A DNA stretch of 63,993 nucleotides, counting the filler, from Atractiella rhizophila (Eukaryota): assembly GCA_021432655.1 (NCBI GenBank). It is 21 parts of 21 records of this genome, joined end to end, with 100 filler letters (N's around TTAATTAATTAA, not from the genome) between each part and the next. Parts side by side here need not be neighbours in the genome. Positions count along the whole stretch, not along the records: positions 6,306 to 9,333 come from MU272590.1; 20 more parts are not named here. One strand, given 5' to 3'. Each line of letters begins with the position of its first letter. Positions within the stretch are counted from its first letter, which is position 1. Below the pieces are notes generated by a model. The model was not told the DNA's origin. It saw nothing but the letters and a program-made list of their open reading frames with translations, and ran no database searches. The position numbers were made by a program, and so were the translations under genes. Below, in pieces: positions 4,949 to 63,993 of this stretch.

Positions 4949-6305
4949 GCTTTGGTTCGTTTTTCATATCTTATTGCTCTGAATTCTGTTGGAACTACGC
5001 TCGAGACTGTGTAACTCTGCACAGCTATTCCACCATAAACAAAGACGGAATGAACCAGAGACACAGGGCTAAAGAGTTTGATGAAAATAACAGAGAACAA
5101 GGTTGAGAACAAAGAGCTCGTAACCAAATCTGTCAGTATTATATCATTGTACTGTACTGGCGACCAAGCTTGAAAGGGGATGGCAACAATTAAGATTGGG
5201 CAGCAGTTCGGAAATCAAGAAAGCCCTCCTCATAAATGATTCCATCCATCTACCTGGTACAGCGAAGGTGGACCTGGATGACTACTAATGTTGCATAACT
5301 TCTCTTGAGATTCCTGGCACCAACAAGGACCTGCTGCCGATATATGCCTCTCACTTACATGGTTGACAATCTCTTCTCTGTATTGCACCTGCTTCATGAA
5401 CTGAGTCTGTAAGAGAACATGCACACGGAATAAACATATAACGTAATGGAAAGCGGCCTTTTAGCATTAGGTTGCAATGGGACAAGGAGTTGGTTAACAA
5501 AGGGATCTGAGCTAAAGCTCACTCCGTTGAGTTGGGACTATCTTGACTTGAAGTGTTTATGGCGACAAAGGTAGAAAGAGCGAGTTTTGAGGGAGAACAT
5601 AAAAAGCAGCTTCGCATGAGGTGCTCAGCATCAAAAACCTATCCTCGTCCCAATTCAAAATCACCCGGGGTCAGCATTACCTTTAAATTGTGGCCGTTGC
5701 TCACAATGCCTTGGATTGATCTGCATCCGTTGTATTCAAGCCGATTGACAAAGTCGAAAAGATGGTTCGTTGTCCTGCGCTGATAAGTTCACAATTCATG
5801 TCTGGCAAGGGTTGCGCCGAAACGACAAGTCGAGATTTCAGAAGGCGTTTGGCACGACCCTAATCAACACCCACACTACCATGAAAGCGATGCGAGATTA
5901 TATCCTTGGACCTCCTCAACGTTTCCTCGTCCTCCCAACAGCCAGATTGATGCAGAATTACAGGGGAGAGTTCAGGATAAGCACCAGCGCCAGTATCACG
6001 CTCGTCCTCCCGTGATAAATAGATATGGCTTCGGTGAAGGAGTTGAACCAGTTTATGGTCCCGAACAACCACGAAGCAACTTGCATCGTAAGCTGTTCCT
6101 AGTGAAGAATGAACACCTACACTGAATATTGCCTTTTCTTCAGCGAGAGGAATTATACAGAGAAACATTCGAGCTTTTCCAGGCCTTGGACGCTGGGGTT
6201 AGAAANNNNNNNNNNNNNNNNNNNNNNNNNNNNNNNNNNNNNNNNNNNNTTAATTAATTAANNNNNNNNNNNNNNNNNNNNNNNNNNNNNNNNNNNNNNN
6301 NNNNN

Positions 6306-9300
6306 GCGGTATGAGGAGGCATTGAAACAGTTTGAAGAAGCGAGGGAGCTGTATCTGCAGGTGGAAGATCGGCACGGCATGGCTCACTGCATTCACAACA
6401 TGGGGCAGATCAAGCAGGATCATGGGTGGAATCAGGAAGCATTGAAAGCATTGAAAGTGTTTGAAGAAGCGAAGGAGCTGTATCTGCAGGTGGAAGATCG
6501 GCATGGCATGGCTCACTGCAATCACAACACGGGGCGGATTGAGCAGGATTGTGGGCAGAATGAGGAAGCATTGAAACAGTTTGAAGAAGCGAGGGAGAAG
6601 TATCTGCAGGTGGAAGATTGGCATGGTGTGGCCCACTGCAATCACAGCGTGGGGCAGATCAAGCAACTTTGCTGGCCAAATCAGAAAGCATCAAAATGGT
6701 TCAAGGAAGCAAAGCAGTTGTATGACCTGTTGAAAGATCAGCAAATGACCGCCAACAGCATTCACTGTATGGAGGCCATTGAACAGCTTCAAGGGCAGAA
6801 TGAGGAAGGACTGAAACTGTTTGAACAGGTGAAGCAGTTGTATGTGATGGTCGGAGATCAGCAATGCTGGGCCCACTGCATTCGCAGAATGGGGGAGATT
6901 GAGCAGCATCGTAGGCGGAATGAGGAAGCATTGAAATGGTTTGAAGAAGCAATGGAGCTGTATTTGCAGGTGAAAGATTGGCATGGCCAGGGCAACTGTC
7001 TTCACAGCATGGGACAGATTGAGCAGCATCGTGGGCAGAATGAGGAAGCACTGAAATTCTTTGAGCAGGCAAAGCAGTTATATGTGATGGGAGGAGATCA
7101 GCAATGCTGGGCCCACTGCATTCACAGCATGGGGGAGATCGAGCAGCTTTGTTGGCGAAATGAGAAAGCATTGAAATGGTTCGAGGAGGCGAAGCAGTTG
7201 TATGACCTGTTGGGAGATCGGCAAATGACTGCCAACTGCATTCGCTATATGGGGGCCATCCAGCAGCTTCGTGGGCAGAATATGGAAGCACTGGAACTGT
7301 TTGAGCAGGCAATGGGGTTGTATCTGCTGGCGGGAGATCAGAACGGTGAGGCTCACTGCATTCGCAGCATGGGGGAGATTGAGCAACATCGAGGGCGGAT
7401 TGAAGAAGCGCTGACATTGTTCCAGCAGGCGAAGAGGCTGTATCTTATGGTGGAGGATCGGCAAGGGCAGGCCTACTGCATTCGCAACATAGGGCAGATT
7501 GAGCGGCATTGTGGGAGGAACGAGCAAGCACTTAAATTGTTCGAGAAGGCAGACCAGCTGTGTCGAGGACGTGAAGATGTGTACAGACTCGCCCATCGCA
7601 TTTACACCATAGGCAAGATCGAGCATGTTCACAGGTGCATTGAGATGGCAATACATCGATTCCAGGAGGCAAAGAGGCTTTATTTGGCCTTGAAAGATGT
7701 TGAGGGTCAACTCAACTGCCTTGAAGCCTTGGGTTCTGTTTATGTTGATGACCGCCAGTTCCTGAAAGCAGTCAAGGTTCATGAGGAAGCAATTGATTTG
7801 AGCAGGAAAGTCAGCAGCTACTATGAAGCTATTTCCAGAGAGAAAATGGCCACACTTCTCCTCTTTAGACTATCAAGATACACCCATGTGAACAAGGAAC
7901 TTGAAGATGCCTGTCAGCTTTGTGTCAAAAGCTGCATAACTTCAGGGATAACATTTTGTGTTGTAACAATGCATCTTTCTTTATATCAATCTCATCTAAC
8001 ATAGACTCAGGAACCAGATTTAACCGCATGTGCCCATCTCATCACCCCAACGTCATACGCTGCTTCCCTCCACCTGTCCATTCTTCCTTCTTTCCTATTT
8101 CATCTGCCTCGGTCAATTCACTCGATCTGCATCACCTTTGTCTTACCTATCAGATATTCTTATCACTCTCCTGCAAGTGTGTCCACGAAATTGTCCTATT
8201 TCTCTCTTCCAAGTCTCCTGCAGTCATTTGGAAACAAGCCCAAACAAGATGGCATAGTGGATCTTTGTGTTAGGTTTGATCTTGAACATGTCACATTCAA
8301 ATTTGGGAAGGGCGAAGAGACCTCAGATGATGAGCCCCCAAGGAGTGTGTTTTCTCACACATTTCCTCTCCTCCCGGATTGGTCACAGGCAATCTTTGCC
8401 CCTGTTGCCTCATACTCCATAGCCAAAAATAGTTTTGTCCCTATCATGGATAACGAATCGTCATCCCTCCTGTCCTTCTATCAAGCTGTGAGCATTATCC
8501 AACTCTCGCTTTCCCCTACTGCACAGGATAGGAGGTGCTTTATCTCACGCTTGCCTCCTGAGCTTCTCTCCTTCATTTTCAGTTGTCTCTTGGAAACAGG
8601 GGATGCCAATTGGAACATCTCCCACATCTGCAAGCACTGGAGGGTTGTTTCAGCCGTGTATTGGGACGAGCCTTATTCGGTGTTGGAAAAGCATACTCGT
8701 TTAAAAGTGTATGCTGGTTCTGGACGTATGTGGAAGCAACTCCAGTTTCGACAATGCATGGATGTTAAGGTGGTAGAAGTGGTCATCTTGGGCTCGCTGA
8801 ATGTTACAGACATGTGGCTGGACGCATTTTGGAATGAAGAAGAGGCCAAGATATTGTTAAATGCAATTGGAAGCTTGATCAAGCTGGAGGTTGTAACCTT
8901 TGGACATAAGGGTTCAAGGCAGTGGAGGAAGCAGGAGGTAGAGGACTTCATGCAGGGGATGAGGGAGAGGATTGTACAGCTCTCCGCACTGGGGGTAGAA
9001 AACCTTTCCACCCTCTCTTTCTCTTCTATGGCATCAGCTGATCGTCCATTATCTCGTGGCTCCATATCCCTAAAGGTGCTGACATACCCGTCTATCCTAC
9101 AGCTCTCCCTCCCACAAACCCTCTTGCAGTTGAGCCTCATCACTCCAAGTCCTCTCCCAACCTCAATATCAAGCTCCCTGCCTGCTCAGCTCAAACATCT
9201 CACAATCGAGCTTACCCGGGCCTTGCCTAATGGAAATACCTCCATCCCACCCAGACCTCTCGACCTATCACTGCTTGAACAACTGACCTATCTCAACCTC

Positions 9301-9333
9301 GACGGCGGCGAGGAAACTTCAAACCTCGTTTGC
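6306..9333 (+). CDS. TPR-array protein (40-aa repeats, NLR sensor type), probably fused to an F-box-like and leucine-rich C-terminal region; partial at both ends
   Basis: About 12-13 repeats of 120 bp (EALKxFEEAxxLYxxVxDxxGxAHCIxxMGxIE) over 6306-7830. The only in-frame stop, TAG 8002-8004, is the acceptor of a 42-nt GTAACA...CTAACATAG intron (7963-8004). The same frame then stays open to 9333 and contains ISRLPPELLSFIF...ISHICKHWR and LxxLxL motifs. Confidence 0.75.
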
Positions 9334-15774: not shown

Positions 15775-16827
15775 TCAGTGAACTGAACGGTGTGCAAGAT
15801 CAAATTGTCGAGGGAGTGGGCGGGGTAGAAGGCGAGGTGTAGGAGGTACACAAAGGTCCGGCGACGGTTCGGCAGCCACTGCCTGAGTAGTCGGAGCCAG
15901 TTCAGTAATAGGAATCGACAGCGACCTCGTCTTGCGAATATGATGTCTCCTTCTGTTCACGTTAGCATTTTGGCTCTCCAGCTCCTCCGCTCTCCCCTGG
16001 CTTCTGAGAAACGCCACCTCATAATACTGTCTGGCATTGTCGTCCCATAACTCGAAGTTACCACAACGAAAACGCACACAAAATTGCAGTCTTCTCTCCC
16101 ACCACTTCCCACTATCCTTCGCGGCTGCATTTCTAGTTATCTCCTCCAATCCGATCTCAAACTCGAACTCCTCAAACGCTCGCCCCTTAATCGTTCTCAG
16201 GGACGTGGCCAACACTTCCGAATAGCTTTTCCAGCTATCCACAGTCCATTTGATCAGCACACTTTTCCGCAGGGCGAGGTTTTGTACCGCGACACACCCC
16301 CTCAAACAAGTCGGTGGACCGTCATGAAAGGCGGTAGGAGAGCAGAGCTCGATTGTTTCGACGTATATTTCGGAATCGAGTGCTTTTGAAGAAGAGAACG
16401 GAGTAAAGTTGATGGGATGTGGCCGAATCAGCCATCCCTCGTCCAACTCGTCATCGGTTGACCATTCGTTTTCTTCCTCCACTGGAAGTGAAGGATGGTC
16501 GATCCCTTCTTCTTTCTTTTGTTCTTCTGTGACTGCTGTCCGACCTATAACTGTTGGCTCGTCAGAATACTGAAAAATTTTGATTTCTTGAGGGTTGGGA
16601 TTAAGGTGTACTTGATGACACATCGAAGACCGATCTGAGAGTTTCGAGGGCAAGGAAATGGCTCGATGAGGACGCAAGGAGCTCTTGACTTTGAGGGGAG
16701 GAGGGGAGGTGTAGATGCCTGCTGCGGCCTCGCTAGGAGATCCGGATCGGTAAGCTGTATGAGGCGGTGAGTCAGGGAACAGGAGACTGGCAGGGTACTC
16801 TACCACCTCATCCTTTGTTTCGACCAT
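15775..16827 (-). CDS. CBM21-domain protein (PP1 glycogen-targeting regulatory subunit-like)
   Basis: LRGCVAVQNLALRKSVLIKWTVDSWKS...FEFEI...LQFCVRF...WDDNARQYY matches the CBM21 pattern. Upstream KSSLR...QVHL...IKIF...P resembles the PP1-docking region. The start ATG is taken at 16827. Confidence 0.85.
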   Translation of the reverse strand: MVETKDEVVEYPASLLFPDSPPHTAYRSGSPSEAAAGIYTSPPPLKVKSSLRPHRAISLPSKLSDRSSMCHQVHLNPNPQEIKIFQYSDEPTVIGRTAVTEEQKKEEGIDHPSLPVEEENEWSTDDELDEGWLIRPHPINFTPFSSSKALDSEIYVETIELCSPTAFHDGPPTCLRGCVAVQNLALRKSVLIKWTVDSWKSYSEVLATSLRTIKGRAFEEFEFEIGLEEITRNAAAKDSGKWWERRLQFCVRFRCGNFELWDDNARQYYEVAFLRSQGRAEELESQNANVNRRRHHIRKTRSLSIPITELAPTTQAVAAEPSPDLCVPPTPRLLPRPLPRQFDLAHRSVH

Positions 16828-18781
16828 GGTGGTGAAGCCTAGTTTCTCGAGCCGCAAAAGCCAGGGTATGAAGATTCCTGTCTGCAGCTTTCGTCCTTTC
16901 GTCCGCTTCCCTTTCCCCCAAGCTTCCCCTTTATAACTTTATTTCGGAACAAGGTTCTCGGAATTTAAGAGCAAAGCCGCATTCAGAAAGGAAGGCGTGG
17001 CTTGCAGAATGCATTTTATCGCCGAGGTGATTCCCTTCCATCTTCCTTCCCGAGGTAGATAACCTTAAAAAGCTGCGAGAAACCTTCATGGTTAGGGTTA
17101 GATCACCTTTGGTCACTCTTAGTTGTTCGGAACCTTCTCCAGGTCAGGTTGTGATCAACTTGCCGAGTTGGCGATCACCAGCGAGCGCTGATCCCATTGT
17201 AGCGACGTCAACGTCGACTTTTGTGACCGTCGTTCATCTCGTCCTGTTGCTTCGAGACTCACGTTCATACGCGTTCAGTGTGGCTCACGTACAACTTCCT
17301 TCAAAAGCCTTCCTTCAACATTGGATCGATCCTATGAAAGTGGTCTCTTTCCTTGTGCGTGCACGCGAGAAAGCAAGAGTAAGGGTGGCTAAAGGTTTTG
17401 GTTCCGCTGTATTGACTCTTTCTCTGTGATTGTGAGCTTTACAGCATTCTTGATTTATGGAATCATGACGACGTGCATTCGGCTCGTTTGAATATTTGGA
17501 TCGTCTTCAATATCAACCAACTTTTCTCAGGAAGCGACATCAAAATGACAGCAAATTCTCAGCGGTATGGTCCCAAGCAGAGTGATTCACTGCGATCTCC
17601 AAGTCCGGCAGCATCTTCCTTGTGGCCGTCTGCTGAAGGAGTGCATGTGAAACTGGGTTTGAGCACTTCTATTTTGTGTGGAACCGTACTGAGAGGAGAT
17701 GTAGGCGAGAACTGGACCTTGCTCAGGTGGGACGACTTGCAGGCGTTTCTTCTCAATCCAGCGAACACAATTCGGTTCCTCATGACGATATCGTCAGAAG
17801 AACGGCCGATTTCCTCAGAGGTTCGTCTTTTCTTGTCCTGAACTTCATGTCTCATGTCATGAGCAGAAGAAGTGACGAAGACCAACGGTACCCCTACCAA
17901 AGTGAACCAACCTGGACTTAGAAAGTAGAGAAAGAAGGTTGTTAAACTACCCCGAGACTGGATGGAGGAGGTGGGGGTGAAGAAGGGCTTTCAGAATAAA
18001 AATCAAGCTACCATACTACGGCCGTACAAGAATCTTATGTTTCCAATTGCTTCATAATAGTTTCTCCCAGTAATGAGTAGCGTTTCTTGAAATCACAAAG
18101 AAGTTTAGCACTTAGAAAGACCTGGAAATAGGATGCGCCGCTGAACTGTCTTCAAGCTTTTATTGCTACCATTTGTTCTCTGTCCGGCAACGAGCATCAC
18201 AGATATTTTTGAATAATCACCACTGCTGGAGGATAGGATTTTTTCAACATTTGAAGCCCCGTCCCCTGTCAAAAATGCTTTCCGGATTTTGACAAGATTT
18301 ACCAGCATTTTCCCCACTTTTTCGGTGTGATGGAAAACTCGCAAAATTTGGGTCAGGTTACGGAATTTTTTGCAGTTTTTCAGGCACGCGAGAGACTGTT
18401 GATTGGCGCAAAAACAGGAATTTCCATTATTTTCCCAAATTTGCAGCGTTTTAACATCTGCCGATCCCGTTGCCCCTCGCACCTGCACCTACTCCTTCTC
18501 CTCCTCCTGCACCCTCCTGCACCACCCTTCTGAACTTCAACCTCACAATGTTGTCGATGAGCCCGATGGCTTTGCTGCTGCTGTCTGAGTTGATGCCGAT
18601 TGTTCCTTCCATCGCCGGTTCCAGTCCTGCCCCATTGAGTTTAGCAAAGCACAAACTTGCTGTATTGAACGAGATACAGACNNNNNNNNNNNNNNNNNNN
18701 NNNNNNNNNNNNNNNNNNNNNNNNNTTAATTAATTAANNNNNNNNNNNNNNNNNNNNNNNNNNNNNNNNNNNNNNNNNNNN

Positions 18782-21424: not shown

Positions 21425-22188
21425 CGGCATTCTTCAAGATGGGCTTGGCATCCTTCAGTTCAGTCTTGATCTGCGCTTTCTTCTCCGTCCGTACAATACT
21501 CGGTTTCCTAGTATAGCTTGCGGCATTGAGAAAATAGAGAGCTTTGAAATAACCATCACAATAGCCGAGGAGAGAAAAATGATCGATGAATACGTGTAAG
21601 AGTTGATTGGTATACGTGGAGACTATTTAGCTGTAGTCCTTTCCAAGAAACCGCTGACCGATCCATTCCCTGATCTGCTCATTTGGATAGGTGAGATTGG
21701 TTGGCCGTCTTCACCCTGAATGAAGTCCTGTGTCGTTCCTTTCCGCACATCTTTTCTGAGCTTCTTGTAAACATCATTCCAAGCCTTGAATTCCGNNNNN
21801 NNNNNNNNNNNNNNNNNNNNNNNNNNNNNNNNNNNNNNNTTAATTAATTAANNNNNNNNNNNNNNNNNNNNNNNNNNNNNNNNNNNNNNNNNNNNCCCAA
21901 GACTGCTCACTTCAGCAATGGAAGCAGATTTTGATGGCAGGATAAAGCTCGCGAGAATACGAAAGCACGCGATTTGTACGAAGGTGAGGGTTATCATTGC
22001 GGGAGCAAGTTTGAAACAGAGAGATGCAAGTGTACAATTATGTAGAGGCACCAGATTCGATGATTGCAATTGTTCCACTCGTGCTCATGCAGGCTTTTTG
22101 GAGCTCCGCACTTGAACTCAGGACAACACAAAGGGGCACATTTTCCTCCCAACTCGGCCTCACTCAATTGATCTGATATGGATAGCTT

Positions 22189-22443
22189 ACCCGCACAATG
22201 AAGCGCTGTCCACCCAACATCGTCCTTGATCTCCAAAAGCTCCTTCACACGCTCCTCCCTCTCTGCGACCTCGAGAAAGAGTTGGACATTGTCAAATCGC
22301 GCATTGGAGCATGCATAATGCAGCGGAGTCCTCCCGTCTTCGTCTTTCGAGTAGAGGTCGCTGGTAGACTCTTCCAGCAGGGGACGGATGTGCGTCGCTG
22401 GTGCAGTAGAGGCGAGTGACTGCAGACTTGTTGATGGGGGCAT
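22189..22443 (-). CDS. Ankyrin-repeat protein (Nas6/gankyrin-like), first exon
   Basis: KDEDGRTPLHYAC and KDDVGWTALHCA, followed by a GTAAGC donor. No downstream ankyrin exon is visible before the contig edge. Confidence 0.75.
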
Positions 22444-22715
22444 GCTAGCTGATTAGATGTTATGAAACTGGTTAAGAAACCTAGAGAAAGATGCAATGCG
22501 ACGCGTCATTGCCATCTCTGATCTGATATGGCTTGCACGTGACATTATGCGCGGTGGACAAACTACCACAAATATCGCATTTGATATTGCTAGGCGCTTT
22601 TTCTTTGCCCGCGTTTCAACGCGCCTCGTGCTTCCCTTGCACGTTCCTCTCGCTGAGCCTATAAAGACCTCCTTCCCACTTTGGTTTGGAGCAGCTTGCG
22701 GTATTGCCATACACC

Positions 22716-25290: not shown

Positions 25291-27969
25291 TCAAATAAAG
25301 CGTAAGAAGGCGTCTTGATCTGAGAACTTGTTCAACCAAGCCTCCTGGTGGCTGTCTAAAATGTTCGAGCGATTTTGATCGCGAGGAGTTTCTGTTTTGA
25401 GGACTGGTGTTACATGCGCCTGCCGTATAATTCGTTCGATCGGGATCACTTCCACTTCACGGACTGGAACTCGATTGACAGAGACCTCAGCAATCTTGAG
25501 CTTCCACATGCGTGTGGTGGGGTCAATGTCGTGTCCAACAAGGTTGAAATACTGGACAAAAGCCAGTTGATGCTCCTTTCCCTCAAACTCCAGGCTGAAA
25601 AAGAGAAGGACTTGTGCGGGACGGAACGGACGCTTTGCTGCTGCCCTTGTTTCACGAATCACAACACAGTCAAAGCGTTCAAATGCCTTATCGTTTGCTT
25701 CAGGGACATCCCGAGAGTACCAAGAGTCCTTCGCTCGAATAAAATACTTCAAAAGCAGCCTGTTCTTTGTAGGGGCAGCTAGGTTCCTCCAGACAGCAGT
25801 GACTGCACCATAACGGGTGATAGTGCCAAGGAAATTGGGAAGCTGGTCGTCATGTTCGTAGCCAACATACGCCCCAGTTGCCAGTGACTTGAGAAAGCGT
25901 CCGATGTGATAACGAAGGTAGAAAAGGCGCTCTTTCTCGATTGCTTGGAGCACGGGCATCGGATATCCTTTCTCTGCCCCAGCATTATGTATCAGCCATT
26001 GCCGCTTGTTTACAAAGTTATTTTACCAGGAGTTTTTGCCATGAAAACTCCAATATTGCCCCCATGATCGACATGGCGTGCTCCACGAGGTCGAGCAGCC
26101 TCATTTGGAAGCAAACCCACATCCTCCAGATACGCTGTCTTTAGCTGAAAGGCGTCTTGCAAGAAGTTTCGGTTTAAAATCTGTGAATCTGCATTATTCT
26201 TGTTGGTCCCTCTGAATGGGTCCTTAAGGTCAACCGAGTGAAGAGCTTCGGAGTACTCTGTACTCAGAAAAGTCACCGGTCCAACATTGACAATGTCATC
26301 ATCGTAATGATGTAATGCGTGAATTTTTGGAATATTATCAAAGCCTTTCTCTTTTCCATCTTTGCCGACACGAACACAAGCAAACGCAGCCAGATCAGCA
26401 AAAAAGCGTGTTTTTGCTTGCTGCAGGCTGTCACGTTCTTCGTTACCAAACACGGGAAGATTTGCAAAGTAGACAAATTCCAGTAGCGCCACCGTACATC
26501 GCAATGCTGGAGTTGGGACAAGACCGTAAATGGCTGGGGCAAAGATGGCTGCGAGCTGTTGAGCGTCGCCTGCCGACCAGCGAGAGAAGTTGAGACCCAT
26601 ATAGAAAGCACGGATGCCTGGAAAAGCTGGCATAAATTTTAGGCGTCTCTCCAGTTCCGAAATCCCTGGTCCACCGTGTTCTTGACGCTCGATCTCAATG
26701 AGTGCAAGGATCCACTGGACAATATGGTGAAGAAAGATACCTTTGAGCAGCTGATGGAGGATATCTGATACAAGAATGCTATGCATGTCGGTTAAGCGTA
26801 AATTGTCTGTGTACGGTAAAAGAGGACGTAGCCCTGCTTGCTTGAGTCGTGCCTCTGACCATCCAGCAACCAAAGCATCCCTACGCTGGCTTTCATCTCG
26901 CAGTCGCCACTGGTCATCCTTCCCTTTGTCTGAAGGGTCGACAAGGCAACGGTCACACCATCCGTCAAAGAGGAGAGCGAGGAAAACCTTCTCCATGTAG
27001 TCCGCGAAATGAGCTACTATTGGAGGGAAAAAGTGGCGATAATATCCATCGGGACATCTTGCAAAGAGCCCAGTCTCTTCAAGTTCTTGCAATGGATCTG
27101 ATAATGCGATTCGGAAAGCTTGAGTGACAAGCGCGTGAGAGAAAATTCGGTATTCTTCAGTGCTTTTTTCGGCATCAGTAGCTCCTGCTACCTTTTAGAG
27201 ATAGTCTAAGAGGAACGCAAGTCACATACCACGGATGAGTGGGACACCAGCTGCAAGCATGAAATATCGGAGATGGTGTAAATAGGCCACATCTTCATCG
27301 ATGTTGCCAGGCAAGACATAAATGGGGTAGAACTCCGCACCACCTTTTTGAGCAGCAAGCAGGGTCTTATCTGAAGCAACTTTAAGAGGCATTATCGTTG
27401 CATCTGAACCAAGTAATCTCTGCCAACCACATTAGATCGATGAAGAAGAAGGCACGAGGCTTGATGACAAACCTGATATCTTCGCCACGCCTTTGCCGAA
27501 GCCATCGAACTATAGACCTCTTTTCCTTCCACATCAATATCAATAAAGGCTTGGTACTTAATATGCCCATTAAGTCCTCTTGCACCAAGTGTCCTCGTCA
27601 AGACATTCTTCAGGTTACGATGCCGAACAACATACATCTCTTGCATGTATCCAGGCAATTCTCCATCCGGGAACCTATCCCGTATCTCGTCCACATTGAC
27701 AGTGACAACCGTCTCATGCCATTTAAAGTCTTCTGCACCCGGAACTTGGGAAATAAGATCAAATAGCTTTTGCCTGTCTTGGAAGGGACGATAATTAAAG
27801 TGCTCCTCCAAAAAATCCAGGTATTCTTTTGTTCGTTCAACACTGAGTACTACTCCATTTGAGTTTAAAATAAACATTCCTGCATCTCGCTGACGCTTAT
27901 CTTCAAAGGGCCACCATCCATTATTCTTCTGATTAGCCTGTTCCAATGGATCAGGCTCTGGACCGTCAT
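25291..27969 (-). mobile_element. Plavaka-family transposase gene, spliced, 5' partial
   Basis: Motifs WWPF, YSSMASAKAW, ASDKT, FYPIYVLPGNI, CPDG...ADYME...WCDRC, DILHQLLKG, PKIHALHHY and STEYSEALH. Three introns join the ORFs with no internal stop seen. Confidence 0.9.
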
Positions 27970-28662: not shown

Positions 28663-30430
28663 ATGCCTCGCGAGATACTCACCATCAGCGCCGGTCAGGC
28701 TGGGAACCAGAGTAGGTATCTATGTTTTGAAAGATCGGCTGAAATGATGGTGCAACAGTTGGCAGCGAATTCTGGCGACAGCTCTGTCTGGAGCATGGTA
28801 TTTCACCAAGTGGAACACTAGAGGATCTTCCAGCCGATGTCTCAGCGGGAAGTGGGAGCAGTTTGGCGCAAGGAGATCGAAAAGACGTGTTCTTTTATCA
28901 AGCGGACGATGATCATTATGTTCCACGCTCCATTCTGGTGGACCTTGAACCAAGGGTGCGCTGTTGCTTCTCTCGACTCCACCTGGGTATGATGTTGAAG
29001 ATCGCTGCCGTGAAGGTCATAAATGCTATCTTATCTAGTCCTTACCGCTCTCTATATAATCCTGAAAACATATACTTGAGCAAAGACGGCGGAGGCGCTG
29101 GAAACAACTGGGCAGCGGGGTACGTTGCTCTTCTCTTGCCCACATGTTTCTAAAGGGACGCGCAGATATTCAGCAGCTGAAAAGATTTACGAAGAGGTGA
29201 TGGAGATGATTGATCGTGAAGCGGATGGGTCGGATTCTCTCGAGGTAGGACGCTCATCCCTGCTTCAAACCGTCAAGTCAAATTGATGACATAGGGATTC
29301 ATGCTGCTCCATTCCATCGCAGGAGGCACTGGTTCTGGTCTTGGCTCTCATATCCTCGAACGATTGTCAGATCGATACCCCAAGAAGCTGATTCAGACCT
29401 ATTCCATTTTCCCTAATAATCTCGAAGGTATGTAGTACTCCTTCACATCAGTGTGATGTTGCTGATGCCCAGGCTGCAGGAAACAGTGACGTGGTCGTCC
29501 AGCCTTACAACTCCCTCCTTACTCTTCGCCGTCTCACCGAACACGCCGATTCCGTCGTGGTTCTTGACAACGCCGCGCTAGCACGAATCGCTTCCGATCG
29601 ACTGAAGGTGGAGGAACAAACATTCAAACAGACCAATCAGCTTGTTCGCTCTCTCTTTCCTGTCTCCAAACCAAGCAGGAATGACGATGGAGCGGTGTAG
29701 GTCTCAACTGTTATGTCAGCCTCGACGAATCCTCTCCGTTTCCCTGGGTACATGAACAACGATCTTGTGGGCATGGTCGCCTCCCTCATCCCTACGCCTC
29801 GATGTCACTTCCTCATGACTGCATACACACCTTTTACCTCTGATTCACTCGACAAAGCGAAGAGCACACGGAAGACGACGGTTCTTGACGTGATGCGCCG
29901 TCTACTCCAGCCAAAGAATCGCATGGTTTCTACTCCACCCACAAGCAGCAAGACCAGCTGTTACATCAGTATCCTCGACATCATACAGGGGGACGTAGAT
30001 CCAACAGACGTGCGTTCCATCCTATCCCACGTTTGACACGAACCCGAGCTGACGAACGCCGCGTTGACAGGTGCACAAATCTCTCCTACGAATCCGAGAG
30101 CGCTCTCTCGCCAATTTCATCCCCTGGGGTCCGGCATCCATCCAAGTTGCACTGTCCAAGCGCTCCCCTTACATCCAAACCGGCAACCGCGTCTCTGGTC
30201 TCATGCTGGCGAACCACACCAGCATTTCTTCCCTCTTCAAGCGCGTGTTGGATCAGTATACGCAATTGAGGAAGAGAAACGCCTTTTTGGAGGCGTACAA
30301 GAGGGAACCCATCTTTGGAAGCGATTTGGGCGAATTTGATCAGTCGAAGAATGTGGTACAGGACTTGTTGGACGAGTATATGGCCTGTGAGAGGGCGGAT
30401 TATATCGACTATGGAGCTGGAGATGATTAA
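28663..30430 (+). CDS. TUB4: Gamma-tubulin, spliced
   Basis: MPREI start, then [66 protein letters not shown] and [11 protein letters not shown]. Confidence 0.97.
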
Positions 30431-46377: not shown

Positions 46378-48285
46378 ACATCTGTTTCCCCCACTGCACT
46401 CTTGACATATTTGAGGACCCAGTTCCCTCCTCTCTTTGCCACGAGTTCCCAGCAGAGTATGCGATCCTCTGCCAGGTACATGTTGCTTGTAAAAACGTCG
46501 GCGTCGTGTCCTGCGAGATGTTCTCCCTTGAAGTAAGACGCGAGAGGACCCCGTCCTAGTTCGTCGTTGAGCAGGGCAATGTATCGATAGGCGGAAAAAG
46601 CCCCTGGAAGCACTGAGATGTAGCCGAAGACAGACTCTGTTGGTTTATCCAGTATATCTGCGGAGATCTTCAATACTTCCTTGATTTAGAAAGGGGATCA
46701 CACGTACTCGAAATTTTGTATTCAAAGTTTTGGGCAGCCACTAGAGGGTTCAGTAGCGCAAGTCCCATCTTCCCTTTCATCGCGCTGATCTCTCCGCATG
46801 CTCCGGCGACATTGCTATTGAGATCGAACGTTTTCCAGAGATAATACAGACTCTTGTTCGCTGGCTTCGTTCCAACATCCAGCAAGCAGCAGATATTGGG
46901 TTGCAAAAGCGGAGCGAAGGCGTTAAAGAACCAGCGGTGCGAATTGAGCTTTTTCCCATTTCGTTCCTTGAGACAGAAGATGATCTGGGTCGGCACAATT
47001 CCTTTTTCGAGCCCTTTGAACTTGAGAGACGGGTCGATGGAGAGCTGAGTGGTGAATTCGAAAATGTGTGCTTGCACGATCTTCTTTTGCCCATTCGGCG
47101 TCTCTACCATGTTCTTCGCTACACCGTCCTGGTAAACTCCCATAGCGGCGAGACTAAGGTTTCAATGTGAACATAGGAAAGCCCCATTTGAGGAACGTAC
47201 CAGTCCAAAACTCGAGGATGGATGCTCTTCCGTCCATCAGCCACAATACAGACCACGACCTGTATATGTTGTCACTTAAATTATGTCGAAGAGAGAAAGG
47301 AAGGGACCTCACTTTCTTCCACCCGTCTTTCCCCCAGGTCCGACTTCTTTCCCGCGTACAAAGGTGAGCGATGTTTTCTATTTCCTCTTGTTTAGTATGT
47401 TTCAGTTGAGGGTTGGAATGTAGGTACGCACTCATGATTCCGTGCATCGTGCGCGTAAATAAAATCTCATCTTCATTGTACATCGTAACGCCTACGAAGA
47501 GTTCCGTATGCCGATTCATCATTGCTGGGCGTAAAGTGAAACGTTCCTTTTCGTAGTTATCCGGCTAGAGAACCAAAGAAACATGAGCTCTCAAATCCCT
47601 CGTACCTGTATAACATAAACACGTGAAGACGCACATCACAAGTAGCGGCAGTATAACGCATAGTCGTAAATTCCTCCTCTCCCTTCCGCGGCAGGAATCC
47701 AGCGAGACGAGTCGGAATGGGAAGGTCCATGATAAGGTTGCCATCCGTGAGCGCTATCCGCTTCTTGGTCTTGTTCCTCCTCAACATAGGATGTTTAGGT
47801 GCAGGTCCGAAATGCAAATTAACGGTCGAAGGTACACTCGCGCTTTCCGGCAGCTTTGTCTCCTCGATAGTTGTTGCAATTCGCGGCCCACCAGAAATCC
47901 CAGCTTCTTCCATCTTTGCACTCATAGGATCCGGACTCACTACATCCCCAACGAGGTCTTCATACCAACCCGCGTTCTCTTCTGGCAGCTCGGCCTTTTC
48001 GTCATCCATGAGTTCGCCGTGATAGTCTCTCATGCCGTGAGCGTAGCCCTCTTGCTCTACCCAGTACCCCTCCGCTTTCTCGTCTCCTTCCCACGGCCCA
48101 TTGTCTCCGAACCCATTCATGTTTACTGGCTCATACTGATCGTGATGTCCGGAGTGCAGGGGAAGGATAGGCGCTGTTGGGGGAGGGGAAGTCGCGTAGC
48201 GGTGGTGATAGTCCGACAGCTGGGACGCGTACGGATCATCGACGTCCAGGTCAATTGGTGGAAGCGTTACTGGCGTGTATGACAT
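46378..48285 (-). CDS. Chitin synthase (division 1, class I-III type), spliced, 3' partial
   Basis: [66 protein letters not shown] and MYLAEDRIL. Confidence 0.96.
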
Positions 48286-48399
48286 CGTGACGGTAATCGC
48301 GTATCGAGTCTCGATTGAGCAACCAGAACCAAACAAAAGTGGAACAACAAGTCCCGACTCCTAACCCTACTTCGCGAGTCACGTGTAGTTACAACCAAC

Positions 48400-49394: not shown

Positions 49395-52304
49395 CATCCA
49401 CCGTCACCTCAACATCTGGAATCTCCAATTCATCCACGACCCAGTCCACCTCTTTCACACCCCGAGTTGAGCAAATGGTGCTTCGTTTCGGTCGGAAGGG
49501 GTCATCGAGGCCGTCTTCTGGAAGGTCTGGTATGGGATCAATTTCGTCATGCCGACGACGAACTGCCTCAAGTCGCATGTTGAAGATGGCAAAGATCTTG
49601 AGAACTTGTGGGTCGCGCTGCTGCTGAATATTATCACCAGCGGCTACACCTATTCGACTGAGTCTCCAGACCATGAGGCGTTGGAAATATCCTCGAACAC
49701 CGACGTTGAAGGACAGGAAAAGACGTTGGAACAGAGCTCTGTCCAAAAGCATCTTCTCACACAATTCTTCCCTGTCTTGCTTCCTCAAGGTCAACCTGGG
49801 CACACGGGTGAGATTATTCCTTCCAAGAACAACGGGGTAAGCTTACACCTCGAAGTGGGCGTAGAGAAACGCAATGGTGCGCATGAGGCAGACAGTATTG
49901 TCCGCTTCCATCAAAATGGTTTTGATAAAAGACAGAATAAATAGGATGTCGAACAGCTCAACGCTCTCTGGGACTGGCACCTGTGGGGGCGGAGGGTCAA
50001 CACCTTTGGGCAAGGGCACAAAACAGATTGTGTAGATGAGGCCCTCTATCCAGTCGAGTAGGAGGAAAACTCCACGAGTATCCCAGAGGCTAGTCCGCTT
50101 CACAACAGCTTTAATCCACACTTTCAGCATACCTCCAAAAAGTCTATGCCGATTGCGAGGATCAGTATTTTTATCCTCTTCTTCCGTTTCCTCATTTGTA
50201 GGCTGACCTCCAATGATGTCGAGAATAGTCGATACTAGACGACGGTTGGCTAGTTCGAGGACTTTCGGTTTTTGGCCCATAGTGAGATTGGCCGACTCGG
50301 TGGCGTTGACATTGTTGCTTGGACTGATTGACGTAACGGACCGAAGATTGCGTCGAATAAGGGCATCGACTTTATCCATGAGAGAAGCAGCGAGAAACAA
50401 GAACCCGGGAGCCCCGATGTACTCAGAAGGATGATCGACATCCATCTTGTCGTGGAAAACATCATCGGGATAGAGGTATCTCGCTAGTTGGCGATGGTAA
50501 GCACGAAGGAAGGCAAAAGGTAGGTCGGAATCAGAAGCTGTCCATCGTAACAGCCTGTCGGGTGAATCAATAGGAGAGAGATGATAGGGCAGACGCTAGC
50601 GTACCAATTCCCATTCATTTCCACCACGATATCTTCGTGTCTAATGAGGTATCCATCATCTTCTGGATCAGGATTATTTCTGTTCACATTAAATGTGCTG
50701 AAATAAGAATTGAAGTTGCGATAACATAACCTCCATAAATGTCGCGGAAAGAGCTCTGGCTCTACTGGTGGTAGGTCTGTTTCATCCAAACCAGCTTCAC
50801 CGAGTATACGCCGAAGGGAACCTCTTTTCACAGGAGGGAGTGCTCGGAGTAACTTCAAAGCCACTCCGTCGATACGAAAGAATGCAAGAGCTACAACACT
50901 CGTCAGCTGTGACGACAACGAGACTGTGACATACCAAAAAGTCGTCCAGCAAAGACTAGGGTATTTGCATACACAGCTAAGGATGCTTTATAAGTTACAG
51001 TAGGTCAAGGCAGGGAGCGGTTCACCTTTATCGTTCAACTTGTCAATCGCCCAAGCAATGAGTCTGACGATTATTGTCTTGAACCGTTCCTCTCCCATTT
51101 CATCCTCGTTCATGGTTGCGGCGCTAAGGTATCGACTGGGAAGACCTTTCAGCATCGTATAAAAAAATCGAAGACATTACCATTCTAGGATTCCGGCTGC
51201 AGCCTCTAGACAAGCCCCGCGATGGCTAGGTTGCACTTGCTGCAACTCTTGATGAAGCATATCTAGCCATCCAAACAGTATCTCTCGTTGACGTTTGGCC
51301 AGTCGTTCATCGGGCCGATAATTGAGCCGCAATTCTTCCTTCTTGATAAAAGGAAGTAAGGAATTAGAGACGACACTACCACGTTCATTGCTTCCTTGCT
51401 TAGCAAAATTGCTCATTGCTTCTTCGATATCCAACCAAGCCGAAGACATCGATCCATCGGATCCGAGACCTGAATCAGCAGTCCTGGTTCTTTTCTTCCG
51501 ATCCAGAACTTGAGCCGGCGTCACATCAGACCCGGAGCCAGAGCTGCGAATGGAGTTGGTGGTAATGGCGCGCTCACGTTGAATTAGAACTGGAGAGACC
51601 GAAGCTCGCACGGCTGATAGAGGAGCAATAGAGGGCACAGGGGAAGGTGTCACTCGGTCCACACGTGCTGCGACAAAGACGGTTGCTCCCTCGTCATCTA
51701 GGGAGGTCCGTCCTGGATCTGAGCCATCGGAAGATGTGGCGGATGAAGCAAGCGAAGGGCGCCTGTTTGTGACTACGGAGCGTTCCTAACAAAACAGATT
51801 CAGCACGATCCAATCTGGGATGAACAAACACACTTGCTGAGACTCTCTCATTTGACGTTCAAGTCCGAGAGAGTTTTTTCTCACCGCTTTCACAGCCTTA
51901 CTGCCTGCTTTCCCGATAGACGAAACCACGCTTGCTGCACTGGTCTTGATTTCTCGCAACGGGGGTCTTTCCTTGTCTTCAGCGGCAACCCCTGATTCCA
52001 AGTTCGTCGAGGACTTCGAAAATGCCTTCTTCCCCATCGGAAACTGACTTAGATGGTCTGGAGTTTTAGGGCGAGGTGGCATCGCTTCCGGTTGGCTCGA
52101 ATTTGTAGCATTAGCAGCAGCGGCAGCTGCAGCAACGGCGGCATTCTTCAGGCCACCCAGAACGTTCTCACTCTTTTTTCGCATCCTCGAGAGTCCTCTC
52201 TTCAAGCCACCGCGTTCTTTCCCCTTGTCCTCATCCTCTCGATCGCCTTGATCATGTATGGGGGTAGGAGTAGGCGGAAGAGACTTGTTGAGACTTAGAC
52301 CGGC
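49395..52304 (-). CDS. DUF1765 (UPF0592)-like fungal protein, spliced, partial at both ends
   Basis: HRGACLEA, AFFRIDGVALKLL, FLYAHF and FQRLFLSFNVGVRGYFQRLMVWR, with a long Ser-rich N-terminus. Confidence 0.7.
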
Positions 52305-56722: not shown

Positions 56723-57974
56723 ATGATAATCCGGCGTCTCCTTCACACCCGCGTGCCTCTGCCCTATTCAACCGCGGGTGGACTCCCTCCATTTCTCTCC
56801 AGTCATGCGCTGAAACATATTGGTGAAGTCTGGCAGGAGGACATGATGAGGAAGCTCAATGACCAAGTTCAAGGTACGTATCCTGCCCTGCTTATATGAT
56901 TTTATAATTTTTTTTTCTTGTCTTCTTACTTGCATCAAGCCGTCATTGTAATGTTCGTGAAATGCGTCTCAGAGCTCTTGCTGTAAAAAAGCCCTTTCGT
57001 TACTGAACGGTTGTGAGCGGAGCAATAATTTGGCAACAAATATCTTACACCTCAGCCTCCCAGAAGCAATAATCCTATTCGGGGTACTCTGGTTGATGCG
57101 CTTCTGCATACGTTCTAAAATATTGCGACACGGTTTATTCCTATGCGCACACGTCTACAGTTTATATGTTTGTGCTGGATGGAGAGGTCATTAGATGAGC
57201 ATGGAAGGTAATCAGGGGTTGAGCAGAATTTTCATTGCCGATTTTACAGCTTTTGACTTTGTCGCACTCATGGCAGTTTTCTTTCCTTCTGGATTTCAAC
57301 TGAGCCATTCTTCAACGCAGGGACAGAGAACTCTACGAAATCTCTCCTCCAAACCGTACTCTCTACTTCTCTCTCGCCCTCCACCTCCTTAACATATAGT
57401 TACTCCTCCCTCCTCCTTTCCAACCACCTCTTCTTGTCCTCCCTCTCTCCCACTCCCACCACCCTCTCTCCCAGCTCTCCTCTCCTCGCCGGTCTCGAAA
57501 AGACATACGGGTCGTTCAAAAACTTTGAAGACGTCTGGCAACAGACTGCCCTGAACACTTACGTCGCTGGGCACCTCTGGTTGGTCTACTATGCTCCTCA
57601 AGAGAAGCTAGAGATCAAGTGGACGGCGGGGAGCGGGACGGTTGTCGTACCAGGAGGGAAGAGGGAGATGAACTTTCAAACCGCTGTACGTCCATTGCTC
57701 CCTTCCTCCTTCCCATCTCCTCTCACCTCGTACCGCTGGCATTAACGCTTATTGTTTTGAATAGCCGTCGAATGGAAATCGGCAGCTATTCCCTCTCCTT
57801 TGTCTCGGGCTGTGGGAGAGAAACTGGGTGTGGGATTATGGAGTCGGATTGGAAGCGAAGGAGGAGTATGTGAAGAGACACTTGGGGGCTGTGGATTGGA
57901 AGAAGGTGGAAGGGAAGTTTGAGGAGATTAGAAGGGGAGTGGTCAAGCCCAGGGAAGCTGGGGAGACAAAGTAG
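56723..57974 (+). CDS. SOD-fold mitochondrial small-subunit ribosomal protein (mS42/mS43, Rsm26/Mrp1-like), spliced
   Basis: Presequence MIIRRLLH, then LPY...GLPPFLS...WQ...LN, YGSFKNF...GHLWLV and PLLCLGLWERNWVWDYG...VDW. This is an Fe/Mn-SOD fold without the DxWEHAY metal ligands. Introns at 56874-57320 and about 57686-57764. Confidence 0.75.
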
Positions 57975-61590: not shown

Positions 61591-62560
61591 CCTGCACGAG
61601 ATATTGAGCAGCATTGCAGCTTTGTGACCCATTACTTCCATACAGGCTTTCGTCCGACCCACGACGTCCTTTGTTCGCTCCCACTCCTCCCACTTGACGC
61701 CTCCCATTGTGTGGACTAAAAAGCGGTGGTAGCGATGCCCCAGACCGCGATCCTGCATCTTCATCTTCAACTGATCCGCTACCTGAGCGACGATTGCCTT
61801 CACAGCGAGTTCAATGTCGCGTTTGGTAGGTCCCCAATTAACAGCCTGAGCGATCCCCGAACCCAGAGAGACGAGACAGGCAACTTGGCTTCCTTGTCCC
61901 CATATGCGCTTTGCCTCGTCAATCGCTATCGCCGCTGGGTTATTGTTCCCGATGGCGACATATTCGGTATTGTCAATGACGATAGAAGGAAAGAATTGAT
62001 GGGCAGAGGAAGTCGCTCTTGCTGCTTCCAACACGGTACATCGAGCAGCAGAATGAACTGGATCGGGGCCGTCGGTATGTGCGCATCTCTGTTGATACAA
62101 CTGCGTTTGATTCGTACCTTGACACGACAAAAGTTCTACATCTATCCCCAATTGCCGCATCCTTCATAGGAAGTCGAGAGGACAGTATAGACGATGGAGC
62201 GTGTCGTGTAATGATCTCCTGGAGGACGGCTGCAAGCGTCTTTGCGGAGTAGACATAGCCTTCATTCGAAAGTGGAGGTCCCTCGGAAAAGACGTCCTGC
62301 ATGATCTCTTCGTATGCGCTGATGGATTGTCGAACGGTCATGCCCAACCTTCCAAGCATGAGGGCGATCCACCCTCCCATGGAAGTGCCGCAGATCAGAT
62401 CGAAAACATCGCACCGCCGGACTACTTCTCCTTCGGGGACTTTGAGGAGGTTGCCAACCTGGAGCATGATGACTTCGAGCATGTAAAGCGCGGAGAAGGT
62501 ACAGATGCCACCGTTGTCGATAGCGAGGATTCGGAGTCCTTGTTGTTGGGGTAGGAGATC
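61591..62560 (-). pseudogene. Patatin-like phospholipase domain (NLR-effector type), frameshifted, catalytic Asp missing
   Basis: LRILAIDNGG, FDLICGTSMGG...MLGRL, EAARATS and CLVSLGSG. The frame changes near 62050 with no intron signal, and the DGG motif is replaced by YVAIGNNNP. Confidence 0.8.
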
Positions 62561-63993
62561 TAGAGGCAACGGGCAATGCGGGATGCGATAAGACGCGAAA
62601 TTGTGGACCAAAAATTGTCGGTTTGACGCTGAGGGAACGGCTAGGTTGATAGTACAGCTGCAATACAGAAAGATTTTGAACTCCGATGCCTTCATTAGAA
62701 GAAGGAACTTGTCGTCAACCTTGGCTGAATGCGTGGTCGTCATCAGACAAATTCCCAGGGTCTTCATGGTTGCTGGGATTTGATGTAGAAGGCTTAGGCG
62801 TCTTTTCGGAAGCTGAGTCCTCCATCGCTTAGAGCACGAGATGACATCGATGACAATTGGCGCAGAACTCCTTGTTGAACGGTGAGCGAAACTGAGGAAA
62901 TGCGTGTTAGATCTGGACTAGAGCTATCAGGAGGGAGAGCGGCTAAAGAATACTCGACTGGCTGTGAAGAAGAGGAAGAAGAGGAAGAAGAAACAAGGAA
63001 TACGGAACACAGTACAGCCACATGCCGATCCAAAGATCCGCACGTACGAAGGCATGAAAGAAAATCCAGACGAATATGAGGATGTGAGGATAAGAAGGGG
63101 AGGTAAGCTTAGGGCAACTCGAACAATTTGTCAACTCGCAAGACGGAGGAACGAATGCCAGGGAAAAGAAGGATGGCACTATGAACCATCCAGCACTGAA
63201 GAACTCTTGTCTAACGCAGCGGAGGGGGATCCTAAGAAGAAGTGGTGTTGTGGATAAGTTAAAGTTATGCTTCTGATGGAGATATGAAGGCTGCACAATA
63301 TCGAATTGACAAGGGAGAACACAAAGTTCATCCCTCATCTCAAGGTCGACATGCCAGGCTATAAATTTAAGACTCACAGGACCTCCAGAGACTCTTTCTT
63401 CGACCATGTAGAAACGCTTGACATTCAACACACAAAACTCAGGAACAATGCGATATCTTGCTCTCTTTGACGCGTGAGAGAGTGTGTGAGCAGACCCGTC
63501 GCCGGGTCGGCGATGTCGGGGTTAAGGTCTGGTCTAAAACTGGTGAACAAGTTTTGCGAAAATTTGTGCGGCGAAACAGAGGGGGTGGGCTTAATTCCCA
63601 GGCCTCATTTGGTTGGAAGGCCGGCCGGATGAGCTTCCAAAAAAATAAATCTGGCATACAAGCTCAACATATTGACACTTTGGCAACTGCACTGATGCTG
63701 CTCAAAAACAATGCAGCATCTGCGGAGAAATATTTAAGGACACGGAAGGGTACTCCAACACACCAGATAGAAGCCAGTGATGGAAGAGAGAAATTTAAAG
63801 TTTCTATTGATGAGTTCGATGGGTGGTTAGCAAAGGAAGCTGAGAGAGTGGAGTGGAGAGTTGCAACAGGATGGGATACTCTTCTGAAAGAGTGTATTGG
63901 AAATGGTGATCCTGGCCAACAGACACAGCCTTTTGTGTTCTGTTTCATGGACAAATGGCAGAACGAGCTGTTATCAGAGTTTGGACAGACAGC

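Follow-up and report, generated by a model that had tools for sequence, protein, structure and literature searches.

A TPR array in phase with an F-box/LRR module in Atractiella rhizophila: a candidate chimeric gene with a putative junction intron

The closest described counterpart of the arrangement investigated here is found in the SCF F-box proteins Dia2 of S. cerevisiae and Pof3 of S. pombe where, in the portion of the source drawn on here, tetratricopeptide repeats (TPRs) at the N-terminus are followed by an F-box and by C-terminal leucine-rich repeats (LRRs) (PMC3405993). In FBXL-type proteins (Skp2, FBXL17, FBXL2, TIR1, COI1 and D3/MAX2), the F-box leads into an LRR solenoid. Dia2 is encoded by a conserved gene and contains a short TPR domain. 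TPR arrays of the TPR_10/TPR_12 type are joined to NB-ARC domains in fungal NOD-like receptors (NLRs), where the repeat class enriched in these proteins shows an internal conservation above 85% with TPRs of mostly 42 aa, and where LRR motifs were not detected according to the abstract of the same survey (Dyrka et al. 2014, PMC4986451). In this study, we describe a locus of Atractiella rhizophila (assembly GCA_021432655.1), which is contained in a piece at positions 6306-9333 of a 63,993-base stretch of DNA that was analysed as a whole and that is termed the window, and in which a TPR array is followed by a module composed of an F-box and LRRs.

On the DNA, this locus shares the order TPR, F-box and LRR with Dia2 and Pof3, and these parts would reside in one polypeptide only if the stretch 7963-8010 is removed by splicing. 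An earlier note on the same DNA, made from the sequence alone, had considered the architecture as undescribed, which with respect to the domain order is wrong. There are nevertheless pronounced differences to Dia2: the array contains at least 12 TPR units of 40 aa, an extra domain of 160 aa is located between TPRs and F-box, and the module is part of a multi-copy, lineage-restricted family, whose members are mostly devoid of TPRs. Although a Foldseek search with the module retrieved the Dia2 structure 7pmk_L at rank 35 (E 1.1e-2), Dia2 is absent from the ten PDB sequence matches of the family profile. Dia2 clusters (0.79-0.80) are also found, next to those of TONSOKU, among the Atlas look-alikes of residues 560-1169 of the paralogue P0040 described below, with scores of 0.78-0.82 that all remain below 0.9 and are leads only. 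Judged from sequence comparison and from the restricted, multi-copy nature of the module family, the gene is no Dia2 orthologue. We place it among the F-box/LRR substrate receptors, as a variant which would have reached a Dia2-like order by a separate fusion.

The junction between TPR array and module

The piece contains two long open frames on the plus strand, a TPR frame of 565 codons (6307-8001) and a module frame of 443 codons (8005-9333), which are in phase with each other and separated by a sole stop codon, the TAG at 8002-8004, as described in the earlier note. The TPR frame is open at the 5' boundary of the piece, so that the N-terminus lies outside of the contig as also noted before, and at the 3' boundary the module frame is likewise open. 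The sequence around the TAG shows the features of a short intron (Table 1): both 7963-8004 and 7963-8010 begin with GT, end with AG and contain a branch box, and the removal of either would preserve the frame. At 0.286, the G+C content of 7963-8004 is the minimum of the piece for segments of 42 nt, compared to 0.41-0.50 around it, and only 0.8% of such segments, all located at 7944-7968, are equally GC-poor. The earlier note had proposed a phase-0 intron of 42 nt with the TAG as acceptor. Its GT...AG ends, its CTAAC box and its phase are real, but the branch A at 7999 and the G of the TAG are only 5 nt apart, compared to 11 nt for the G of the CAG further downstream. Since very short distances between branch point and acceptor are disfavoured, the 42-nt version is less likely, and the CAG at 8010, which would define an intron of 48 nt, is the more likely acceptor.

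The stretch 7354-8103 is reproduced with 0 differences by contigs from two DNA runs, which are possibly the assembly's own data. As these contigs carry the same sequence, the TAG at 8002-8004 is no slip of the assembler. Here and below, evidence from DNA and RNA runs refers to read-derived contigs compared with 6306-9333.

The relationship of the module to its paralogues defines what the candidate intron contains. In a tblastn comparison with 83 proteins, of which 80 match on the module side, homology starts at 8005-8035 in most full-length members of the module family. In stand-alone members, the protein opens with a start Met followed by a conserved leader (M.EQ.TSS...SQEP), located between a few and some tens of residues before the position equivalent to 8005. 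In the candidate intron, which holds the ATG at 7969-7971 in addition to the TAG, this ATG precedes the Q of QEP by 13 codons, a spacing that is also seen for the start Met in P0011, P0012, P0047 and P0061. The 12 codons between the ATG and QEP show no resemblance to the leader of the family (MTEQ.TSS), and the TAG is the twelfth of them (the eleventh when counted from the Met). We thus read ATG 7969 as the ancestral start of the module gene, whose old leader would no longer be coding. The next in-frame ATG, at 8446, follows the N-terminal domain of the module (N-domain), and its Met is conserved in no paralogue, P0040 included. For its conserved N-terminal part, the window copy thus lacks an own start codon, and the module could be translated together with its N-domain only if the leader is spliced out of a transcript that begins in the TPR gene. 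It is this combination of a conserved N-terminal part without its own start and an ancestral ATG inside the candidate intron that leads us to prefer one chimeric gene, in which the TPR array is spliced to a member of the F-box/LRR family, to a downstream copy that is dead, although our confidence in this reading is about even. Only two of the tblastn matches, those with P0002 and P0029, extend further upstream than 8005, and these extensions were considered as coding leader and rejected, as they show no visible similarity.

The junction is shared with a paralogue. P0040, annotated as 'TPR-like protein' of 1,169 aa on a contig of 316 kb, starts inside a TPR array and contains about 17 TPRs followed by the module. 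In this public model, ...TSGIPFCV is joined to GPDLTACAHLISP... (FCV to GPDL), at the same place as in the window, which in window coordinates corresponds to the donor at 7963 combined with the acceptor CAG at 8010. The end of the TPR frame (7765-7962), which comprises a degenerate last TPR or cap and a non-repeat tail, aligns with P0040 as far as the same FCV. The two sequences are 59% identical over the TPRs, 77% over the module and 80% over the N-domain, and the identities over TPRs and module imply that the TPR-module arrangement predates a sizeable divergence. In one contig of the DNA runs, TPR-like sequence (33 letters, up to 7143) is joined to the module from 8006, with synonymous differences at 8052, 8055 and 8074. 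This contig might stem from a third copy in which TPRs lead into the module, with another linker between them.

The F-box/LRR family and the TPR array

In the window copy, the F-box family PF12937 is matched with 20.4 bits (E 4.3e-4) at 8542-8652, in the region of about 8540-8650 where the earlier note had proposed to look for it, although the score remains under the curated cut-off of 24.3. The assignment is reflected in the family as a whole, where PF12937 is matched by 26 of the 36 aligned members at E<=0.01 (best 5.8e-9), and where a search of the PDB with the family profile (E<=1) identified ten matches with E of 0.004-0.43, all of them F-box proteins (FBH1, Skp2, FBXL5, FBXL17, FBXL2, FBXO42, TIR1 and FBXW7) at profile positions 191-243. 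An AlphaFold (AF2) model of the module frame has a predicted local distance difference test score (pLDDT) of 76.9 overall, and of about 85-94 for residues 211-330. Between residues 178 and 443, this model can be superposed on F-box/LRR proteins. The VIA Z is 14.4 for FBXL17, 13.2 for D3 and 12.6 and 12.2 for Skp2, in alignments that start at residue 178 or 204 and extend to 443, and Foldseek matches include Skp2, COI1, D3, FBXL17, TIR1, FBXL2 and Dia2 as well as NLRP3-type LRRs. In the model and its VIA superpositions, the LRR solenoid directly follows the F-box helices, as it does in FBXL proteins.

In contrast to FBXL proteins, to which its identity amounts to 8-16%, the module carries its F-box about 180 residues into the sequence, behind an N-domain without recognisable fold, and no Pfam LRR family is matched by either the window module or the family members. 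The first approximately 170 residues that constitute this N-domain contain strands in the AF2 model. A stand-alone model of the domain (pLDDT 61.8) found no matching fold, with a best VIA Z of 3.2 over 48,161 chains. The module is thus an F-box plus LRRs with an extra N-domain in front, in line with the F-box and leucine-rich module that the earlier note had recognised. The solenoid is truncated by the boundary of the piece, and a read-derived DNA contig continues for 285 nt past 9333.

The search for relatives of the module revealed 39 proteins of 243-776 aa (E<=1e-3), which mostly cover 98-100% of the query, are 35-51% identical and are all source-named Atractiella rhizophila. A search of 1.84 billion representatives yielded only 49 matches, of which the close source-named ones all come from one species, and from these searches the family appears nearly confined to Atractiella rhizophila. 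Pattern scans of metagenomes retrieved 140 stretches with the single protein and 229 with alignment A1, among which no relative was confirmed. The majority of the family consists of proteins of 520-750 aa that stand alone, without TPRs. Such proteins (e.g. P0001-P0032) are 41-48% identical over all 443 residues and share the N-domain, the F-box and the LRR with the window module, but unlike the latter they carry their own Met with a conserved leader and no TPR part.

The pattern of substitutions in the window copy of the module points to coding-type constraint. Its frame is unbroken for 443 codons despite a protein divergence of 23% from P0040. The 35 single-base differences that are listed between the window copy and closely related paralogous contigs, in a tally that mixes several copies and leaves 41 further differences outside, comprise 14 synonymous changes, 21 others and 0 stops, and are distributed over the codon positions as 15:4:16. 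The depletion at second positions (4 of 35) corresponds to a chi-square of 7.6 with 2 degrees of freedom and a p of about 0.02. The RNA-library contig that is identical to 8735-8943 (Table 1) also speaks for a living copy.

In the TPR frame, Pfam identified TPR_12 (E 2.7e-51) and TPR_10 (E 6.5e-27), and Tandem Repeats Finder a period of 120 nt with 69-83% matches at the DNA level. The pairwise identity of the units is on average 45%, with a range of 20-78% (eleven 40-aa units; maximum 77.5%). The tail of the frame, in bins 7518-7921, is single copy at >=88% in the DNA runs, and the summed contig depth of about 8,000 at the TPR units, which is not a copy number, compared to about 90-125 at single-copy parts, shows that there are many similar TPR units elsewhere in the genome. 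The closest PDB sequences to the TPR part are designed pentatricopeptide repeat proteins (PPRs) and GPSM2/LGN, with no NLRs among them. Among TPR relatives of 990-2,825 aa, P0040 is the sole close one; the 119 others listed are at most 35% identical and mostly non-fungal by name, and they contain a mixture of domains (SIR2-like, AAA, NB-ARC, CHAT and kinase).

A gene of the kind that we favour would consist of an upstream TPR_12-type array and a downstream copy of the lineage-specific F-box/LRR family, joined by a phase-0 intron of 48 nt (or 42 nt) at 7963-8010. This intron would be the decayed leader of a once independent downstream gene, which has retained ATG 7969 and now also contains the TAG. 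The predicted product would combine, in this order, the TPR array, a beta-rich domain of 160 aa, the F-box and the LRR, and it may act as a putative SCF substrate receptor, whose F-box would dock on Skp1-Cul1 and whose LRR, together with the N-domain, would bind the target. By analogy with the TPR domain of yeast Dia2, the TPR array could serve as a second binding or tethering platform.

Rival readings of the locus

Several observations weigh against a chimeric gene. The donor GTAACA lacks a G at position +5, which is present in all three introns inferred in other pieces of the window (47, 51 and 70 nt; Table 1), a small sample (n=3) derived from frames and Pfam continuity without RNA. There is no better in-phase donor, since none of the 13 in-phase GT/AG pairs in 7780-8090 contains a consensus donor. 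In the sole RNA run found, which covers 8735-9331 in pieces, there is no RNA over the junction at 7962-8011, which says nothing on splicing. P0040 is no more than a gene model, and it omits 86 residues, corresponding to 258 nt in the window, that comprise the whole F-box. Such an F-box 'intron' would be produced by a predictor that skips a frameshift, and this resemblance to a predictor's detour lowers the weight of the junction intron in the same model. Within the family, fragments of less than 300 aa account for about 20 of the 49 representatives, and several others are odd 'fusions': P0059 combines a RhoGAP with a cut-short module, P0041 is a tandem double, and P0044 and P0046 carry the module behind long N-terminal regions without Pfam match. 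These fusions and fragments may be merged models or dead copies. Finally, the window copy retains 135 of the 171 columns (79%) that are conserved at >=80%, which places it at rank 31 of 32 in a range of 75-96%.

Two further observations concern the same elements. The F-box-holding segment at 8488-8745 could be an optional intron, whose removal would lead to an F-box-less isoform, or else the detour of a predictor round a defect. In DNA-run contigs with P0040-like substitutions, one version is gapless over 8388-8711 and another contains a 5-nt deletion at 8532. The 209-nt RNA contig listed in Table 1 is not counted as bridging the end of this segment, because it starts only 11 nt before 8746. 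The family also appears prone to landing beside other genes, or to being merged with them.

In a first rival account, there are two separate units, with a TPR gene that ends at TAG 8002 and, behind it, an untranslated or slowly decaying relic of an F-box/LRR gene whose leader has acquired a nonsense codon. We regard this account as possible, but less probable than a chimeric gene. In it, the shared frame would be due to chance (1 in 3), and P0040 would be an ab initio model that merges the same pair of duplicates. It would accommodate the ancestral start with a stop 11 codons later, the weak donor, the skipped F-box of the P0040 model and the 5-nt deletion in a close copy, a family rich in fragments and doubtful fusions, the position of the window copy among the most divergent members and a junction that is not covered in the RNA run. 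Against it weigh, however, the open frame of 443 codons after 23% divergence and its depleted second positions, and the location of the sole stop precisely within a removable GT...AG stretch that coincides with the GC minimum. Moreover, the TPR frame runs through the old ATG of the module and thus leaves no intergenic room for a terminator and a promoter, and the locus appears in an RNA library. A different solution, in which the module is made alone, either from ATG 8446, which would give F-box and LRR without N-domain, or from an unseen first exon spliced to 8004 or 8010, appears very unlikely. ATG 8446 is located 32 codons before the F-box, and the RNA-library contig lies downstream of it. 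On the other hand, the Met at 8446 is unconserved in all paralogues, even in P0040, the N-domain upstream of it stays open at 80% identity to the same protein, and the 1.7 kb upstream are entirely occupied by the TPR frame, with no candidate first exon visible.

A final alternative extends the chimeric gene by what is missing at its 5' end. If this part were to encode an NTPase of the NB-ARC or NACHT type, the protein would be an NLR with a TPR sensor followed by an integrated F-box/LRR module, which would couple non-self sensing to ubiquitination. The earlier note had described the locus as NLR-style, which is unproven, and we consider this reading unlikely. Like fungal NB-ARC-TPR NLRs (PMC4986451, in the portion drawn on here), the locus contains a long array of the TPR_10/TPR_12 type with many similar units in the genome, as reflected in their high abundance in the DNA runs, and NB-ARC or AAA domains occur in some of the distant relatives of the TPR part. 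However, no NTPase is seen in the piece, and no NB-ARC, NACHT or other NTPase domain was detected in P0040, whose model begins within the array although it is located on a long contig. This paralogue is also the sole close relative of at least 990 aa, and the closest PDB sequences of the TPR part are no NLRs. The repeats fall short of the conservation above 85% that defines the NLR-enriched class, with a length of 40 instead of mostly 42 aa and a mean identity of 45% (maximum 78%) (PMC4986451, in the portion drawn on here). Two surveys on the architectures of fungal NLRs (PMC4986451, PMC9815663), whose supplementary tables could list rare architectures, contain no occurrence of the term 'F-box' in their main text. 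No literature combining 'fungal NLR' with TPR and F-box was found, and the papers listed for Atractiella rhizophila include, as judged by their titles and the start of their abstracts, no genome or gene-family study. If the NLR reading were true, this would be the first fungal NLR with LRRs, and it would have arisen when a neighbouring gene was captured by intronisation of its leader.

Features of the locus, its surroundings and implications

Table 1. Position and properties of features at the locus and of introns used for comparison (window coordinates)
Feature	Position	Strand	Description
Assembly piece MU272590.1	6306..9333	.	3,028 bp; artificial N44-TTAATTAATTAA-N44 spacer at each side
TPR array	6316..7764	+	12 units of 40 aa (first = 43 aa); 5' end cut by piece boundary
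Degenerate last TPR/cap and non-repeat tail	7765..7962	+	ends ...TSGITFCV; proposed 3' end of upstream exon
Candidate phase-0 intron	7963..8010	+	donor GTAACA 7963; CTAAC 7996-8000; acceptors TAG 8004 (42 nt) or CAG 8010 (48 nt)
N-terminal domain of family module	8005..8487	+	conserved, beta-rich; invariant LSILPS; no in-frame ATG before 8446
F-box-holding segment	8488..8745	+	258 nt, 86 codons, phase 0; open in window; bounded by GTGAGC...CAG; absent from P0040 model
F-box-like motif	8542..8652	+	LPPELLSFIFSCL ... CKHWR; aa 180-216 of module frame
LRR solenoid	8665..9333	+	3' end cut by piece boundary; paralogues extend about 100 aa more
RNA-library stretch	8735..8943	+	root metatranscriptome contig, identical over all 209 nt, depth 2.5; DNA carry-over possible
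Inferred intron, chitin synthase (Chitin_synth_1N, Chitin_synth_1; window 46673-48360)		-	GTGCGT...TAG, 70 nt
Inferred intron, chitin synthase (window 46673-48360)		-	GTACGT...TAG, 47 nt
Inferred intron, DUF1765 gene (window 49396-50595)		-	GTAAGC...CAG, 51 nt

The window is no chromosome stretch but a chain of 21 assembly pieces of 2,602-3,055 bp, sorted by falling length. The spacers between them (N44-TTAATTAATTAA-N44) carry stops in all frames, and the adjacency of pieces is meaningless. Since the pieces are merely chained by these spacers, the window sequence flanking 6306-9333 is unrelated and both ends of the gene lie outside of the piece. Along the TPR array, open frames of 146-263 aa are found on the minus strand at 6250-7869, most likely a by-product of the codon composition of the repeats. 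Other pieces contain a transposon copy with a Plavaka transposase (PF18759, E 2.5e-31 and 2.5e-7) in two adjacent frames at 26013-27967 (-) and fragments of ordinary fungal genes: a CBM_21 starch-binding module at 15778-16938 (-), ankyrin repeats at 21997-22452 (-), a tubulin GTPase domain at 28743-29150 (+), the C-domain of a Fe/Mn superoxide dismutase at 57257-57742 (+) and a patatin-like phospholipase at 61976-62917 (-).

The interpretation of the locus as an immune receptor depends in either case on the missing 5' end. If the splice is not real, the module is one more decaying duplicate and the locus a warning that public models such as P0040 can merge neighbours. If it is real, the locus would represent a clean and datable case of gene fusion by 'intronisation', in which the start codon and the leader of a downstream gene were turned into a short intron of the upstream gene, within a fast-expanding and species-restricted F-box/LRR family. 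It would in this case also constitute an independent re-invention of the Dia2-type layout with a long and variable TPR array, and such a long-array TPR-F-box-LRR layout is as expected of a diversifying recognition protein.

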